Origin: Candidatus Gottesmanbacteria bacterium
Lineage (GTDB): Bacteria > Patescibacteriota > Microgenomatia > UBA10105 > UBA927
DNA length: 64,000 nt
Direction of reading: 5' to 3'
Assembly: GCA_963701185.1 (NCBI GenBank)
Contig: OY969569.1
Span: 34,865 to 98,864 of the forward strand
The position numbers were made by a program, and so were the translations under genes. Shown one piece after another: positions 19,150 to 46,083 of this stretch. The stretch's first letter is position 1; each line of letters starts with the position of its first letter. Under the pieces are notes generated by a model, which searched no databases, was not told where the DNA came from, and worked only from the letters and a program-made list of their open reading frames with translations.

Positions 19150-19581
19150 GGTATATTTTTTTATTCCTTTTGGCGTTATGACTTCCACCGTATCACCTGC
19201 TTTTTTCCCGACAACCGCACGGCCCAAGGGAGATTGCGGTGAGATGGTCTTTTTTGTTGGATCCGATTCAAATCCTCCGACAACAGTATATTCAAATTCT
19301 TGTGTTCCGTCCGTAAGTTTTACCCGCGTGGGTGTAATTATTTTAGCGAGCTTAATGAGCCGCTCCACGCGGTGGATACGGGAATCCAAAAATGAAAGTT
19401 GCTGCCGGGATGCCTTGTAATATCCGTTTTCCGACAAATCGCCCATAGCACGGGATTCCGAGAGATTCTTAACAGCTTCCGGACGTGCCGCCAGAAATTT
19501 CTTCCTGTCGTCCAGCAATTTTTGGTAGCCTTCGGCAGTTACAGGAATTTGAGGTTCCCGTTTACGCAGCAATTTTTTCAT
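19132..19581 (-). CDS. greA: Transcription elongation factor GreA (copy 1)
   Basis: N-terminal coiled coil with acidic tip (GDLSENGYYKA) and FKBP-like C-domain. Confidence 0.85.
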   Translation of the reverse strand: MKKLLRKREPQIPVTAEGYQKLLDDRKKFLAARPEAVKNLSESRAMGDLSENGYYKASRQQLSFLDSRIHRVERLIKLAKIITPTRVKLTDGTQEFEYTVVGGFESDPTKKTISPQSPLGRAVVGKKAGDTVEVITPKGIKKYTLVSVG

Positions 19582-20531
19582 ACAAGACTGACGATTGTTT
19601 TTTTTAGTGTTTCTATACTTTTCTCATCGTAGACAGAACAGGTGAACACGTGTTTCGTACTAAACATTCTTTTTACTTCGTTAATTCGTTCAGGATCCGC
19701 AAGATCGGTTTTGGTTAATACGATATATTCCGGCTTTGCGAGCAGCAGAGGATTAAATTGCTTAAATTCTTCTCTGATAGTTGTATATGCTCCCATCGGA
19801 TCTTCATGGTTGACGTCGATGCAGTGCAGGAGTATTTTCGTTTTCTCTATATGTTTGAGGAAATCAATTCCCAGGCCTTTACCGCGGGACGCCCCTTCGA
19901 TCAGCCCGGGGATATCGGCAATAGGGTGCGTGCCCAACATGCCGACTGTCGGGTCCAGCGTGGTAAAGGGGTAGGCGGCAACTGCGGGACGGGCATTGGT
20001 TAATACGGTTAATAAGCTGCTTTTTCCGGCGTTAGGAAGCCCGATGAGCCCTATTTCCGCAATCAAACGCAGTTCCAGTAAAAGTTCCCGTTCCTGTCCG
20101 GGTTCACCTTTCTCGGCATGTTTCGGGGTTTGGTTGACGGAACTTTTGAAATTGACGTTTCCGCGTCCTCCGCGTCCGCCCTGGGCCGCAAGCACTGGTT
20201 TGCCAATCTCGGTAATTTCTATGGATGCTTTTGTCGCCATATCGGTCACTTTGGTGCCGATGGGGATAAGGACAGATACGTCCTCGGCTTTCCGTCCGTT
20301 CTTTTTTTGTTTGGCACCGTCCCCCCCCCGTTTGGCAATAATGGTTTTGGTATACCGGAATTGCCGCAGGTCGTTGACGTCCGTGGATCCGACAAAGAAG
20401 ATGTTTCCGCCCGCGCCGCCGTTGCCGCCGTCCGGGCCGCCTTTCCGTGTCTGGCCGTTCTGTAGCAGCGACGCCGATCCTGCGCCTCCGCTTCCGGCCT
20501 TAATCTTGAGAGTGATGTTATCAACCAACAT
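19578..20531 (-). CDS. obg: GTPase Obg (no C-terminal TGS domain)
   Basis: Gly-rich Obg fold (GGAGSASLLQNG...GGNGGAGGNIFF) followed by a GTPase domain. Confidence 0.9.
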   Translation of the reverse strand: MLVDNITLKIKAGSGGAGSASLLQNGQTRKGGPDGGNGGAGGNIFFVGSTDVNDLRQFRYTKTIIAKRGGDGAKQKKNGRKAEDVSVLIPIGTKVTDMATKASIEITEIGKPVLAAQGGRGGRGNVNFKSSVNQTPKHAEKGEPGQERELLLELRLIAEIGLIGLPNAGKSSLLTVLTNARPAVAAYPFTTLDPTVGMLGTHPIADIPGLIEGASRGKGLGIDFLKHIEKTKILLHCIDVNHEDPMGAYTTIREEFKQFNPLLLAKPEYIVLTKTDLADPERINEVKRMFSTKHVFTCSVYDEKSIETLKKTIVSLV

Positions 20532-20588
20532 GCCTGTATTGTAGCACGGTTAGAGTTTGAGGCTGTATTTGGAGTATAATATGGCTAT

Positions 20589-20659
20589 TGCGGGATCGTA
20601 TAATGGTAGTACGCATCCCTCTGGAGGATGTTATCTTGGTTCGAATCCAAGTCCCGCAG
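20589..20659 (+). tRNA. tRNA-Gln (anticodon CUG), CCA not encoded
   Basis: Hand-folded cloverleaf: acceptor UGCGGGA/UCCCGCA, 3-bp D-stem with GG in the loop, anticodon stem CAUCC/GGAUG with loop CUCUGGA (U33, CUG), T-arm CUUGG-UUCGAAU-CCAAG, discriminator G and U1:A72 as in bacterial tRNA-Gln; TATAAT at 20575-20580. Confidence 0.8.
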
Positions 20660-20661
20660 CA
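20645..20661 (+). repeat. 17-bp direct repeat, copy 1 (3' end of tRNA-Gln), putative att core
   Basis: ATCCAAGTCCCGCAGCA; identical second copy at 20809-20825. Confidence 0.7.
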
Positions 20662-20808
20662 TGTTCCGGAAAACTCACCTTGTGGGTTTGCCGAAACATA
20701 GTGGATTATGGGTGAGAACCAACTTTTGGTTCGGGAATGAGAAGTCATTATCGCAACAACGATTGCGATAATAGACGGATCATTCATGGAGCCTGAAGGG
20801 CGAACATC

Positions 20809-20825
20809 ATCCAAGTCCCGCAGCA
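20809..20825 (+). repeat. 17-bp direct repeat, copy 2 (partial tRNA 3'-end duplicate, attR-like)
   Basis: Perfect ATCCAAGTCCCGCAGCA without an upstream tRNA body; immediately precedes the AT-rich gene block. Confidence 0.7.
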
Positions 20826-20852
20826 AAGTCGGAAGAAGAATCAATAATTCGT

Positions 20853-21704
20853 ATGAAAAAATATATAGTCTTAGATTCAAATAATATAGTTTGTTTTTTT
20901 GAGGGTGGATTTTCACTTGCTCAACAAAAGGGGGTGTTTTCTGCTCCAGAAGAAATAATTGTTTTAGAGCATTTATTAACAGTATTAGATAAAAATAAAG
21001 TTAGTTTAATTCTTCCAGAAGTAGTTATTTTGGAATGCGAGCGAATTAAGGAAGAAAAAAAGGAAGATTTAAGCAAACTTTATGCTATTGCCTTAAAAGG
21101 CGTCGATGATGCAAGTATTCCAAATAAAACGATTGCTGCTCACTCAAGAGGAGAAATTAAAAAAACAATGGAGGATCTTTGTGAAGAAGAAAAAGATAAA
21201 ATAGAAATTGCTTGGTCACTATTTAAAAAAATTATCAACAATAAAAATACACACGTAATTGAATTGAATGGAAGTATTTTATTAAGTGCTTATAAAAGAG
21301 GTTTGATGGGTAAAAAACCTTTTGTAATGAGACATTCAAATAGTAAAGATCCAGATTTTAATAATAAGCCCTTACATGATATTCAACCGGATTGTATTCT
21401 TGTAGAGAGCGTGAAGTTTTTTTTGGCGGATAAAAAAGATTATGAGCTTTATTTAGGTACAAATGATAATAACTTTTTTACTTCTAATGAAAAGAAAATT
21501 ATTGATCCAAATATACAAAGAGAACTTATGGTGAAAAAAGCTTATTTAACACTTTCAGATCTACTAAATAAAGTTTTAGGAATAAAAATACCAATAAGGC
21601 AAAAAATTGATAAAGAACAAAACTTAAATGCGTTTCCGTTAATTTCAAAAAGTGCGACAGTTGAAAGTAAAGGCGAAGACGACCCTTTAATTGTTAAAGG
21701 TTAA
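20853..21704 (+). CDS. PIN-like domain protein (AT-rich island)
   Basis: N-terminus MKKYIVLDSNNIV resembles the PIN VLDTNVLI signature with its catalytic Asp; about 30% GC versus about 50% in flanks. Confidence 0.45.
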   Translation: MKKYIVLDSNNIVCFFEGGFSLAQQKGVFSAPEEIIVLEHLLTVLDKNKVSLILPEVVILECERIKEEKKEDLSKLYAIALKGVDDASIPNKTIAAHSRGEIKKTMEDLCEEEKDKIEIAWSLFKKIINNKNTHVIELNGSILLSAYKRGLMGKKPFVMRHSNSKDPDFNNKPLHDIQPDCILVESVKFFLADKKDYELYLGTNDNNFFTSNEKKIIDPNIQRELMVKKAYLTLSDLLNKVLGIKIPIRQKIDKEQNLNAFPLISKSATVESKGEDDPLIVKG

Positions 21705-21730
21705 GTGATTATCTAAAATTAATATCATAT

Positions 21731-22006
21731 ATGAACACTTTTTTAATATCATTTGAAATATTTGCCCCATCTCTCCCAGTGCAAGAGGGAATACTTATTA
21801 ATGCAATAAAATCTTTCGGTTCTTGGGCCAGGCCAACATCAAAAATATGGTTAATTAAAACCTATTTGACAAGGGAACAGGTTATGGGCAATTTGAGGTC
21901 CCAAGCAGGACCGAACGACAGTATACTTGTGATGTTAGTAAGTAATGATTGGATTGCAATTAATTTGCCAAATGACGTTATCAATTGGATGAAATCAGGA
22001 CTATAA
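21731..22006 (+). CDS. Hypothetical protein (AT-rich island)
   Basis: 91-aa ORF, no recognised domain; same strand and composition as the PIN-like gene. Confidence 0.3.
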   Translation: MNTFLISFEIFAPSLPVQEGILINAIKSFGSWARPTSKIWLIKTYLTREQVMGNLRSQAGPNDSILVMLVSNDWIAINLPNDVINWMKSGL

Positions 22007-22041
22007 CGATCATAAGGTCCGCAATCGGCCCACTCAGCAGA

Positions 22042-22260
22042 ATGAAACTCGGGAAATATCAGCATTCGAAAACGGGAAGATATTATCAAGTCCTTGGTGT
22101 AGCAAAACACTCCGAAACACTTGAAGAATTTGTGGTGTATAAAGCGTTATACGATAACCCCAAAGGGAAGCTGTGGATACGGCCGTTGAGCATGTTTTTG
22201 GAAAAGGTCTTAATAAAAGGGAAGAAAGTACCGCGTTTCAAGTTTGTGAAAATGGTATAG
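22042..22260 (+). CDS. DUF1653 family protein
   Basis: MKLGKYQHSKTGRYYQVLGVAKHSETLEEFVVYKALYDNPKGKLWIRPLSMF matches the DUF1653 pattern; start may instead be 21985. Confidence 0.55.
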   Translation: MKLGKYQHSKTGRYYQVLGVAKHSETLEEFVVYKALYDNPKGKLWIRPLSMFLEKVLIKGKKVPRFKFVKMV

Positions 22261-22290
22261 TATATGTATATGGCGAAAGGAGAAAAAAAT

Positions 22291-22497
22291 ATGAAAGATA
22301 TGAAAGATTGTTGCGGTGGGAAGAAAATGACGCCGGCCGTCGGCGGGGGAGCGGTGTATGGATTGGGATGTATCGGGGCGGCGGTGTATTTTATCCAGCA
22401 CGCGGCGAATTTTGGTGACGGAATATTCGGAGTCCTCAAAGCAGTCGTTTGGCCGGCACTGCTTATCTACAAAGTGCTTGGACTGCTAAACATATAA
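22291..22497 (+). CDS. Small hydrophobic membrane protein
   Basis: AGGAG 8 nt upstream; MKDMKDCCGGKKMTPAVGGGAVYGLGCIGAAVYFI... Gly-rich TM. Confidence 0.4.
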   Translation: MKDMKDCCGGKKMTPAVGGGAVYGLGCIGAAVYFIQHAANFGDGIFGVLKAVVWPALLIYKVLGLLNI

Positions 22498-22516
22498 CGT
22501 TCCCTCTATTTGCGTG

Positions 22517-22546
22517 TTGCAAGGCGGACGTATGTTTAGGTAGAAT
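22517..22546 (+). promoter_or_regulatory. Sigma70-like promoter (TTGCAA, 18 nt, TAGAAT) giving a near-leaderless ldh/mdh transcript
   Basis: The -10 ends 9 nt before the ATG at 22556; no Shine-Dalgarno. Confidence 0.4.
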
Positions 22547-22555
22547 GCTGTAAAG

Positions 22556-23488
22556 ATGCATGTAGCAATTATCGGAACAGGAAGAGTGGGACAAACCCTC
22601 GCATACACTCTTATTCATGAACCATATATACGTGAGCTGTCGCTGTCCGACATTATTCCGAATGTGACCTGCGCGCTTGCAGAAGAACTCAGACATGCTT
22701 GTGTCGGCACCGGAATACCTATAAAAATCAACGCGTACGAAGACAACCGAAAGATACGGAATGCGGACATTATTATCATTAGTGCCGGTATGCCGCGCTC
22801 TCCGCACATGCAAAGCAGAAATGACTTGACTCACGCAAACGCGCGGATTATTAAATCCATAGCATTAGAGATCGCAGGACAGAACAGGAATGCTACATAT
22901 GTCATGATTACGAACCCCGTTGACGCCATGGCCACGCTATTTACTACGTATTCACGTGCGAAATTTGTCATAAGCACCGGCACGAGCCTGGATACGCTCC
23001 GGTTTAAATCGGAAATAGCAAAATATCTCAACGTTCCCGTTCATAACGTTGAAGGATTTGTTGCCGGAGAACACGGGGAAAGGGCAGTATTTTTATGGTC
23101 GACCGTAAAAGTTTGTCATCTGCCGCTCCCGACGTATTTAAGACAAAAAAAGAAACGGATTCAAAAAGAGAAAATCGAGGATTCCGTTCGCGAGATATCG
23201 AAAATGATTATCCGCGACCTCGGCGGGACCAAATTCGGTCCTGCATCGGCGTTTCGGCAAATTGTTTCCGCGTTGGCGCTACACAACAACGACATAATAA
23301 GTATAGCTACACTGCAGTTACATCGGGATATACCCAAAGCCATTCACACGAGTATCCCGATGCGGATGGGCAAGAAGCTTCGCCATTTTCCGGATCATAC
23401 ATTTACCGAGCAGGAACGGCAGGGCTTAACAGCGGCCGCACGGTCTATTTGGGAAACGTATCAGGAGGCGTTACGCGCTGTGGAATAA
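22556..23488 (+). CDS. L-lactate/malate dehydrogenase family protein
   Basis: Rossmann IIGTGRVG, ITNPVDAM, GEHGE; substrate not assignable by eye (Arg near the Q/R specificity position hints at malate dehydrogenase). Confidence 0.8.
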   Translation: MHVAIIGTGRVGQTLAYTLIHEPYIRELSLSDIIPNVTCALAEELRHACVGTGIPIKINAYEDNRKIRNADIIIISAGMPRSPHMQSRNDLTHANARIIKSIALEIAGQNRNATYVMITNPVDAMATLFTTYSRAKFVISTGTSLDTLRFKSEIAKYLNVPVHNVEGFVAGEHGERAVFLWSTVKVCHLPLPTYLRQKKKRIQKEKIEDSVREISKMIIRDLGGTKFGPASAFRQIVSALALHNNDIISIATLQLHRDIPKAIHTSIPMRMGKKLRHFPDHTFTEQERQGLTAAARSIWETYQEALRAVE

Positions 23489-45087: not shown

Positions 45088-46083
45088 ATGAAGTTTCCTC
45101 CGGTATACACGTACACTCCCGAAATAAAGCAATTACTCTATGATCTGGACGTTTTGAGAGCAGGTTATGAACTTCATCCTGTACCGGCTCTCTCGGTCGT
45201 CAATCTCCGACGCGCCTCGCTTCTTAAGAGCTCGCTTTATAGCGCGCGCATAGAAGGAAACCCTCTGGATGTTGGAGATGTAGATGATGTCCGTCCGAGT
45301 GATACTGATATTCATAAAATTGAAGTTGGGAATTTGGTTTCTGCATATGAGCAATTATCAGATATCATCGGGCAGAATGTGACACTTGATACACTCAAAA
45401 AGCTGCATGCCGTTGTGCTTCGGAATATTTCGGCAGACGCCGGTTATTTGCGTACGGAAGAATCTGCAATATATAACCAGGCAGGTACTGTTGTTTATCT
45501 CACACCTGCACCGCAAAACATTCGGACACTTTTAGACGCGCTGTGTGTTTATGTGAATGCTGCAAAAGATGCTGTTCCTGTCGCTTCGGGATTGACGCAT
45601 ATCTGGTTTGAGAAGATCCATCCGTTTTTGGACGGCAACGGCAGAGTCGGAAGATTACTGTCTGCCTATATCCTCAAAAAAGGCGGATACGACTTTAGCG
45701 GACTGGTCCCGTTTGAACAGTATCTGGATGAGCACCGCGATGACTATTATCATTTTTTGGGGCAGGATAGACAGGATGTGACTAGTTTTATAGAATTTTA
45801 TCTTACTGCACTTCTTTCGCAGGCAAAAATATCGCTTAAAATCGCATACGAGTTCGACGAGTCCGGTAAACCTGACACATATGCACAGTTAATGCCCCGC
45901 AGGGCAGAAATTATGAGACTCATCGAAGATCACAAGATTGTGACGTTTGATTTTCTTGCCCGAAGATTCCGGGCAGTAGCAGTCCGCACGCTTCACAATG
46001 ATCTCTCTCAACTTACCAAAGCCGGGTTGGTACAAAAAATGGGTTCCACACGGGGAGTGTGCTACACGGTAAAAGAAAAATGA
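45088..46083 (+). CDS. fic: Fic family protein (class II, with N-terminal inhibitory motif)
   Basis: Fic motif HPFLDGNGRVGR; [ST]xxxE[GN] inhibitory motif SARIEGN upstream; C-terminal wHTH-like tail. Confidence 0.85.
   Translation: MKFPPVYTYTPEIKQLLYDLDVLRAGYELHPVPALSVVNLRRASLLKSSLYSARIEGNPLDVGDVDDVRPSDTDIHKIEVGNLVSAYEQLSDIIGQNVTLDTLKKLHAVVLRNISADAGYLRTEESAIYNQAGTVVYLTPAPQNIRTLLDALCVYVNAAKDAVPVASGLTHIWFEKIHPFLDGNGRVGRLLSAYILKKGGYDFSGLVPFEQYLDEHRDDYYHFLGQDRQDVTSFIEFYLTALLSQAKISLKIAYEFDESGKPDTYAQLMPRRAEIMRLIEDHKIVTFDFLARRFRAVAVRTLHNDLSQLTKAGLVQKMGSTRGVCYTVKEK

Follow-up and report, generated by a model that had tools for sequence, protein, structure and literature searches.

A probable two-unit, integrase-less insertion array behind tRNA-Gln in a Candidatus Gottesmanbacteria genome

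The tRNA-Gln(CTG) gene in a 64,000-nucleotide stretch of contig OY969569.1 (assembly GCA_963701185.1, Candidatus Gottesmanbacteria), the whole of which we call the window, is followed by a direct repeat of its own 3' end and then by an AT-rich gene pair, and we conclude that this locus is probably an insertion array of two units without an integrase, each unit ending in a copy of the tRNA 3' end and the newer one adjoining the tRNA. Unit 1, a structured element, is 164 bp long (20662-20825), and unit 2, a cassette encoding a PIN_12-domain protein and a 91-residue partner, is 1214 bp long (20826-22039), for a total of 1378 bp. Insertion of this kind, targeted at a tRNA and made up of integrase-less structured units and of cassettes bounded by tRNA ends, is recurrent at tRNA-Gln genes of the Candidate Phyla Radiation (CPR, or Patescibacteria) and lies outside the known families against which we tested it. 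We are confident in the descriptive account of the locus given here, the coordinates of which are collected in Table 1.

Results

The repeat observed behind tRNA-Gln is real. The last 17 bases of the gene (20645-20661, copy 0), ATCCAAGTCCCGCAGCA, recur at 20809-20825 (copy 1); these are the only two exact matches in the 64-kb window, and allowing two mismatches adds none, against a chance expectation of 0.01 for such a repeat and two matches in 0 of 100 shuffles. Read from the sequence, the 17-mer starts at the end of the T loop and takes in the 3' strands of the T stem and the acceptor, the discriminator G and two further bases; the gene ends in ...G-CA, with CCA not encoded. Identity blocks of tRNA-targeting integrases likewise start in the T loop (PMC4383910). 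Copy 1 lies within no tRNA as judged by ARAGORN and Rfam, so a sequence-only reading of this DNA, made earlier, was right that a perfect 17-bp direct repeat of the tRNA-Gln 3' end recurs 164 bp away without a tRNA body. The other tRNA of the window, tRNA-Glu, has no echo of its end.

Repeats of this kind recur behind tRNA-Gln in relatives. Scanning species-representative genomes with the 3' 24-mer of the window's tRNA-Gln gave 119 tRNA-Gln loci, 102 of them with enough downstream sequence, and all genomes with this 24-mer are Patescibacteria. An echo, defined as a second copy of the tRNA end with at most two mismatches in 14 bases, within 700 nt and on the same strand, was found at 23 of the 102 loci, and on the opposite strand at 0 of 102. 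The spacing of echoes clusters at 164-206 nt, the elements themselves being ~130-200 nt long; both CTG and TTG genes precede echoes, and ARAGORN placed none of the relatives' echoes in a tRNA or in a second tRNA-Gln gene. Occupied and empty junctions could be compared in three lineages (L numbers denote the loci and contigs compared with the window): L018 (...CAGCA|attgatctgtaccccataaagtaga) with L115 and L123, L046 with L091, and L107 with L075. At occupied loci the sequence after the echo matches the sequence after the tRNA in the module-free relative, and the modules are 80-99% identical, with flanks at background similarity. A 171-nt module is 99% identical between L018 and L087, where it stands behind a CTG and a TTG gene, respectively, and L025 has a bare tRNA-Gln. 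As judged from these alignments, the modules are precise insertions at the tRNA 3' end.

Across subtypes, the modules share one architecture: a terminator-like hairpin, a 5' strand, GGATTCGAAC or GGATGAGAAC, that complements the tRNA end (often with a TGCGGGA-like strand before it), two or three hairpins and, last, the tRNA-end copy. In type A, for which the covariation set comprised ten sequences, pairing in hairpin H1 reaches 96% and 5 of its 9 pairs show compensatory changes, and hairpin H2 covaries too; the covariation score of 0.215, as compared to 0.123 in shuffles, was reached by 0 of 500 shuffles, and the signal vanishes when the partners are slid one to three columns. The closing-stem pairs of type A are 63-76% paired; the stem reads GGATTCGAA/TTCGAATCC in type A and GGATGA/TCATCC in type B, the subtype of the window, and so covaries from one subtype to the other. 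Covariance models R1 and R2 found members only directly 3' of tRNA-Gln in ~850 kb of CPR sequence, one of them in the window. For the window and ten relatives Rfam returned only the tRNAs themselves, at gathering and at permissive thresholds, and our literature searches found no relevant RNA or element associated with CPR tRNA-Gln described. A metagenome scan with the window-type module end recovered one true relative (L128), seven other matches being rejected as chance in coding DNA; a small type-A peptide (MGKPW...) was also rejected, its conservation stopping at the shared nucleotides. Variants of the theme were seen as well. The 0-230 nt after tRNA-Gln in L072 hold another module type, in which the repeat CCCCTAGG-hairpin-CCGGGGTCCCG stands three times before a variant tRNA-like end, CCAAGCCTGGCAG, and the type-A module that comes next copies this variant end and not that of tRNA-Gln. 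L062 and L085 have the T-arm complement CCTTGGATTCGAACC 10-14 nt after tRNA-Gln without a module or echo, and it could pair with the tRNA's own T arm.

Unit 1 is a member of this family. Its GC content is host-like (47%), and its RNA fold (-65.2 kcal/mol, z = -5.9), equalled by 0 of 200 shuffles, pairs 13 of the 17 bases of copy 1. The leading hairpin (A) sits where a terminator-like hairpin opens most family members, such a hairpin being seen at this place in L022, L055, L037, L046 and L057. The multi-arm module (B) behind it is closed by a stem of GUGG-AUU-UGGGUGA with UCAUCCA-AGU-CCGC, and its arms are GAACCAA/TTGGTTC, a long arm with TTATCGCAA/TTGCGATAA, and a short third hairpin. Model R2 scores the window copy at 131 bits. 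For type B (three sequences, the window's module and two in L022), RNAalifold gives 53 consensus pairs, 11 of them with compensatory changes, and on the tRNA-sense strand the ratio of G.U to A.C is 17:1, an excess which argues that the structure is selected on that strand. Such a sense-strand structure is compatible with an RNA, and a top-strand DNA structure is also possible. Rfam has no match at 20662-20825 at E values up to 10, and ARAGORN finds no tRNA or tmRNA there. From its sequence and predicted fold, we conclude that unit 1 is an intact, non-coding, integrase-less miniature element and not deletion debris.

Unit 2 is set apart by composition. GC content is 26-35% from ~20830 to 22000, the lowest value that any 1200 bp of the window reach (30.6%; window mean 46.6%, standard deviation 4.4), and from the GC and third-codon-position GC (GC3) of its two genes, compared with the host-like module and DUF1653 gene on either side, the foreign DNA can be delimited to 20826-22001. 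Short leaders similar to the one before its first gene occur in cargo-bearing relatives (AAGTCGAG in L087 and AAATTGAG in L022). The first protein scores above the cut-off of PIN_12, a family of 17 proteins, and its acidic residues D8, E56, E61, D180 and D205 are invariant across 16 homologues, as would be expected for an active PIN nuclease. An ORF (open reading frame) of 91-92 residues follows PIN_12 in 7 of the 7 other contexts that we fetched; these neighbourhoods are unrelated to one another, the pair is AT-rich also in hosts with 42-48% GC, and neither a tRNA nor the boundary motifs lie nearby in any of the seven. The 91-residue partner has no Pfam domain, neither protein has sequence relatives in PDB, and relatives of neither were found in viral contigs. 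On these comparisons the PIN_12 and 91-residue pair is portable, horizontally acquired cargo. The closest homologues of the pair, with 71% identity, lie in L134 and L136 (~30% GC genome) beside an MwoI-like restriction enzyme gene and two N6/N4 methyltransferase genes, a defence-island-like neighbourhood that would be compatible with a defence or addiction role; a tRNA-like fragment 3' of the pair in L134-136 was considered and not supported.

The right border of unit 2 is a motif, m, that overlaps the stop codon of the 91-residue protein's gene and shares its terminal CAGCA with copies 0 and 1. Ungapped, m matches motifs closing other cargo at 30 of 38 positions in L022 and 27 of 38 in L078, and when gaps and one more base are allowed the similarity to L022, L078 and L087 has p < 0.0003 in each case. 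These homologues close an asparaginase-domain gene (L022), a serine hydrolase gene (L078) and a 205-residue ORF (L087), cargo that is placed directly after a ...CCCGCAGCA copy in all three; L078 is also syntenic with the window upstream (protein identity 65% for gltX and 75% for era). Because the motif of L087 is intermediate, matching both m and the tRNA-Gln 3' region (24 of 37 positions, p < 0.0003), we take m to be a diverged third copy of that region. As a self-folding RNA, m was rejected, with no common structure and no hairpin, and it has no viral matches. Since m ends 3 nt before the start codon of the DUF1653 gene, the latter lies outside the array, and its GC3 of 48% is within the host range (51 +/- 9%, window mean).

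These borders bear on several points of the sequence-only reading. It had described an AT-rich block of PIN-like and DUF1653 genes, which is right for the PIN_12 and 91-residue genes but not for the host-like DUF1653 gene outside the island. A third repeat copy delimiting a larger island, which it had proposed to look for downstream of about 22260, does exist in diverged form, but at 22002-22039 and so upstream of DUF1653. It had also held that host-like GC throughout the same arrangement in relatives would speak against it: this was found for the tRNA, the 164-bp segment and the repeat (GC 47%) and not for the PIN block.

Units are also found in series. L022 and L087 have the layout tRNA, hairpin-module-copy, cargo-m, hairpin-module-copy and flank, in which one hairpin segment is almost the same as the other and the distal copy is decayed; L037 has three modules in tandem; L029 has a module followed by a tRNA-Gln 3' half and another module; and in L033 three tandem 341-bp units follow tRNA-Gln(TTG), each consisting of a GIY-YIG gene, a mini-module and a tRNA 3' end copy. 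Elements that integrate at tRNAs behave similarly in tandem, new arrivals displacing older ones outward (10.1101/2020.12.28.424599). L035 and L094 also carry small GIY-YIG nuclease genes (Pfam 5.7e-17) directly after tRNA-Gln, followed by a mini-module and a tRNA-end copy, and the GIY-YIG units could be of a homing type that uses the same site. At L007, a 109-residue N-terminal fragment of an amino-acid permease lies 139-468 nt after tRNA-Gln, between the tRNA and a type-A module, suggesting that the site can capture or truncate pieces of genes. At L082 (JAHFKN010000006.1, Gottesmanbacteria), from ~130 nt upstream to 40 nt downstream of tRNA-Gln, an older tRNA-Gln is apparently split in its T loop (...ATCTTGGTTCG | insert | ATCCAAATCCCGCAGCA) by an insert in which an 8-10-bp inverted repeat encloses a complete new tRNA-Gln, which would be a nested replacement of the tRNA itself.

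No recombinase or parent element came to light. The sequence-only reading had noted that no integrase gene is present, and we agree: a Pfam scan of the ORFs of the region (window 19578-23488) found none, and a motif search, made with a simple regular expression over the window and the 119 loci as 8-kb blocks, found no tyrosine or serine recombinase signature. Neither the viral contigs nor the 119 relatives' loci contained an integrase-bearing, viral or plasmid-like parent. Candidate phage attachment sites (attP) were rejected, since the 17-mer occurs in five viral contigs at a level consistent with chance, the best (L003) inside a uracil-DNA-glycosylase-like ORF; matches of the type-A core pattern in seven viral contigs were all one unrelated high-GC phage sequence, a hairpin with a ribosome-binding site. 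A 1393-bp Logan contig (L001, ERR10755943) is 100% identical to window positions 20657-22049 and covers both units, the CAGCA core at its left and 10 nt past m at its right. Considered as evidence of a circular form, it was set aside; its left end fits a junction of m with the hairpin in a k=31 graph, its right end does not, and we draw no conclusion from it on such a form. With contig ends at the borders of the two-unit array, branching of the assembly graph seems to occur there, a hint of heterogeneity in this sample.

Upstream of the tRNA lie housekeeping genes (gltX, era, a mutY-like gene, greA and obg, the last directly upstream), and a small membrane protein and an Ldh/Mdh-family dehydrogenase are encoded 3' of the array. 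The exact Obg, Mdh and DUF1653 proteins were looked up for strain variants of the junction, and none is on record. The candidate promoter hexamer of the tRNA has no good -35 and is absent from the output of a consensus promoter scan, which on the + strand predicted no promoter and no terminator between the tRNA and the PIN gene. The window's tRNA-Gln is identical to that of L078 at 72 of 73 positions and 99% identical to that of L022. In L078 (JBBTTP010000058.1), in the 1.3 kb upstream that match the window, two differing tRNA-Gln(CTG) genes, one with acceptor TGCGGGG and 3' end ...GCA and the other with acceptor TGGGAGG and an encoded ...GCCA, stand in inverted orientation around a Fic-domain gene, which occupies the position of the window's obg; the window has a Fic homologue at ~45088-46080.

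Table 1. Features at the tRNA-Gln locus, in window positions
Feature	Position	Strand	Basis or remark
TATAAT hexamer, candidate -10 of the tRNA-Gln promoter	20575..20580	+	8 nt 5' of the tRNA; read from sequence
tRNA-Gln(CTG) gene	20589..20661	+	ARAGORN 20589-20660; Rfam tRNA model 60.2 bits at 20589-20659
Unit 1, leading hairpin (A)	20662..20698	+	Minimum-free-energy fold, positions 1-37
Unit 1, closed multi-arm module (B)	20699..20825	+	Ends in copy 1 (20809-20825)
Unit 2, leader, 27 nt	20826..20852	+	From copy 1 to the PIN_12 start codon; GC drops here
Unit 2, PIN_12-domain protein, 283 aa	20853..21704	+	GC 28%, GC3 18%; Pfam PF16289 35.8 bits, cut-off 32
Unit 2, partner protein, 91 aa	21731..22006	+	GC 36%, GC3 34%; phrog_1090 (phage family) 1.3e-9
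Unit 2, end motif m, 38 nt, right border	22002..22039	+	TATAACGATCATAAGGTCCGCAATCGGCCCACTCAGCA
DUF1653 gene, host gene outside the array	22042..22260	+	Pfam 1.2e-23

Discussion

That the locus is an array of two inserted units is thus probable, and several observations weigh against it. The subtype to which the window's module belongs has three members only, the type-A model does not score the window copy, and the two subtypes are linked by their shared architecture and one weak cross-match (type-B model on L055, E ~3e-4); because this match is to a single type-A member and there is none in the reverse direction, homology of the subtypes is suggestive only. Precise deletion between direct repeats could yield the same occupied and empty pairs, so that the direction of change, insertion, is read from the sporadic distribution of modules and from their near-identical copies in unrelated contexts. 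The window's own site is empty in no closely related genome, and insertion there is therefore argued from other lineages. Compared directly with the tRNA, the window's m is weakly similar (p = 0.015), and the Rfam tRNA model is blind to it (21960-22060, E up to 10). Moreover, the conservation of m among genomes with different cargo is beyond what a passive displaced fragment explains; either m is an attachment (att) arm that the element brings with it, or selection acts on its sequence. Finally, no recombinase was found by a simple regular-expression search of the window and of the 119 loci, the latter as 8-kb blocks only.

The comparisons establish the anatomy of the array, its family, the precise occupied and empty sites and the conserved sense-strand structure, and they show that the cargo is portable and that m has homologues. 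How the units would enter is inferred, and we put forward any specific mechanism tentatively, thinking none of them quite an even bet. Recombination at ...C(G/T)CAGCA, the end that tRNA and tRNA-like sequences have in common, may be how units enter. This could be the work of a site-specific enzyme encoded elsewhere and acting in trans, a route favoured by the low identity between m and the tRNA, or of homologous recombination in which the tRNA at the left and the echo or m at the right would serve as arms; the layout of L022 and L087 looks like a single crossover of a circle carrying cargo together with a segment of tRNA fragment, hairpin and module. As no promoter or terminator is predicted between the tRNA and the PIN gene, the cargo may be transcribed from the tRNA promoter. 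If the locus is such an array, the empty site would read ...AAGTCCCGCAGCA|GAATGAAACTCGG, loss of unit 1 would leave ...CCCGCAGCA|AAGTCGGAAG directly after the tRNA body, and a circle or tandem junction would read ...GGCCCACTCAGCA|TGTTCCGGAAAA.

Alternatively, one could see the module as above all a functional tRNA-like RNA gene, co-oriented with tRNA-Gln, in which a tRNA-Gln-type acceptor/T minihelix closes a three-armed body and whose spread or homogenisation would proceed through the tRNA sequence, by homologous recombination or by gene conversion. Under such circumstances the 17-mer would be no att scar and would be retained because the RNA needs a tRNA-Gln-like 3' end, be it for processing by RNase Z or RNase P, for CCA addition or for protein binding. 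Compensatory changes in several helices, the 17:1 asymmetry of G.U to A.C on the tRNA-sense strand and the pairing of the 17-mer within the fold all agree with this, as does the TGCGGGA-like 5' strand by which many members could pair with TCCCGCA; in the circular permutation B-c-A, moreover, the unit would amount to an RNA gene with its own terminator-like hairpin, and the near-identical A segments flanking the cargo in L022 and L087 resemble the product of a single homologous crossover. However, Rfam has no match even permissively and ARAGORN calls no tRNA or tmRNA, and the sporadic occurrence (~22%), the great diversity of the subtypes and their tandem arrays would be unusual for a housekeeping RNA. 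Most members start right after the terminator-like hairpin with no promoter identified, and the closing-stem pairs of type A are paired in only 63-76%. On balance, we think it rather unlikely that the module is primarily an RNA gene.

The sequence-only reading had instead suggested serial integration and deletion, or a decayed element. On this view, deletion would have stripped a classical tyrosine-integrase island in tRNA-Gln of its integrase and the bulk of its content, leaving the 164 bp and the AT-rich genes as random remnants. A direct repeat of the tRNA 3' end starting in the T loop is indeed the standard signature of such islands (PMC4383910), serial integration and decay with partial tRNAs are known for tycheposons (10.1101/2020.12.28.424599), and an integrase is absent, as decay would have it. 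What that reading said of the repeat as an insertion signature stands, as relatives provide the unoccupied tRNA-Gln sites, and serial insertion likewise agrees with our findings. Its deletion remnant does not, because the 164 bp are a full-length member of a conserved structured family: random remnants would not conserve length (164-206 nt), sequence blocks and covarying structure across species, nor would their terminal repeat be built into a stable fold. No integrase-bearing version from which a decayed element could derive occurs at the 119 tRNA-Gln loci or in viral contigs, and we consider this explanation very unlikely. Local duplication by replication slippage or unequal crossing-over, immobile and beside an unrelated acquired gene pair, is extremely unlikely: in its favour are the palindromic T arm, whose complement is found in the 5' part of the module, and the tandem multiplication of units in L033 (three of 341 bp), but slippage would not create 147 nt of new structured sequence, and it is at odds with near-identical modules in unrelated contexts (99%, L018 versus L087), with precise tRNA-end junctions in several lineages and with cargo itself bounded by tRNA-derived ends.

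The array which we favour shares features with several known systems and differs from each. Like the tRNA-gene (tDNA) islands catalogued by Islander (PMC4383910), it targets the 3' part of a tRNA and regenerates the gene, has a displaced or duplicated 3' fragment in direct orientation at the far end and identity starting in the T loop, and forms tandem arrays at one tRNA; an intact tRNA with direct 3' fragments downstream is present (two exact 17-mers and the diverged copy at 22002-22039). As regards unoccupied target sites, the module family has them in other lineages (L115, L123, L091 and L075), L025 has a bare tRNA-Gln, and no close relative is empty at the window's own site. In contrast to these islands, the tRNA-end copy here sits in a conserved folded module, m is conserved across genomes with different cargo, and no tyrosine integrase lies inside. 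Islander rejects candidates shorter than 2 kb (PMC4383910), and the units here are of 164 and 1214 bp; lacking an integrase and being shorter than 2 kb, the locus therefore falls outside the tDNA islands despite behaving like a tandem array of them. The tycheposons of Prochlorococcus (10.1101/2020.12.28.424599) are similar in occurring in streamlined genomes, integrating serially by a tRNA with newer units pushing older ones outward, and having partial tRNAs between units and small cargo modules. They are kilobases long, however, and carry a tyrosine recombinase and replication genes (10.1101/2020.12.28.424599); here partial tRNA ends and tandem order are present, recombinase and replication or packaging genes are absent, and units can be purely non-coding.

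Integron cassettes and clusters of attC sites lacking integron integrases (CALINs) are also short promoterless cargo arrays at a fixed entry, among which empty units occur, and integron sites likewise depend on folded structure over sequence, with inverted arms that rebuild a target-like duplex. Here, in contrast, units enter at a tRNA gene in place of attI, the G.U pattern speaks for the sense strand or for an RNA, and m has no hairpin; the modules are imperfect palindromes with tRNA-derived ends (..CAGCA) and no R''/R' sites (RYYYAAC / GTTRRRY), and with obg upstream of the tRNA and no recombinase motif in the 64 kb there is no IntI within the window. Miniature inverted-repeat transposable elements have terminal inverted repeats and a short target-site duplication, both of which the modules lack: a module opens with a hairpin on its left, carries the complement of the tRNA end in its interior, and is flanked by a direct repeat made up of 16-24 nt of tRNA sequence. 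The tRNA-like domains of tmRNA, plant mitochondrial t-elements and mascRNA resemble the module in that an acceptor/T-type helix closes a non-tRNA body, and a role as a processing signal is possible. The module motif GGAUUCGAAC after the 5' acceptor strand recalls the sequence GGAUUCGAC of tmRNA. Unlike tmRNA-type domains, the module has a Gln-type and not an Ala-type acceptor, no tag reading frame, and a sporadic, insertion-like distribution, and ARAGORN and Rfam recognise no tRNA or tmRNA in the modules of the window and its relatives. As for the cargo, VapBC-like pairs are similarly portable, AT-rich two-gene units with a PIN nuclease and its acidic residues, with restriction-modification neighbours in one genome in the present case; here, in contrast, the small partner lies downstream and has neither a recognisable DNA-binding domain, nor a Pfam domain, nor a PADLOC match, and the PIN protein is long (283 aa) with extra regions.

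A more far-reaching proposal is that the units constitute an undescribed class of integrase-less mobile units at CPR tRNA-Gln, whose tRNA-Gln-mimicking RNA, with a closing helix equivalent to the T-arm/acceptor duplex of the target, would specify or template insertion and which, together with m-closed cargo cassettes, would build integron-like, swappable arrays expressed from the tRNA promoter. We regard this as distinctly unlikely in its full form.

The genomes of CPR bacteria are tiny and poor in classical mobile elements, and by what route they acquire genes is an open question. This locus and ~20 analogous CPR loci point to tRNA-Gln as a common landing pad without a resident integrase, at which structured non-coding units accumulate along with one- or two-gene cassettes (a nuclease pair, a hydrolase, an asparaginase domain, GIY-YIG). 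Small integrase-less arrays would escape island finders whose criteria include an integrase and a minimum length. Should the module prove to be a functional tRNA-like RNA, it would constitute a new RNA family; should neither account hold, the locus would still be a well-delimited small cassette of defence or toxin type acquired at a tRNA. If the units do move, whether through a trans-acting enzyme or by homologous recombination at tRNA flanks, tRNA-Gln would offer these streamlined genomes a low-cost means of gene exchange suited to them.

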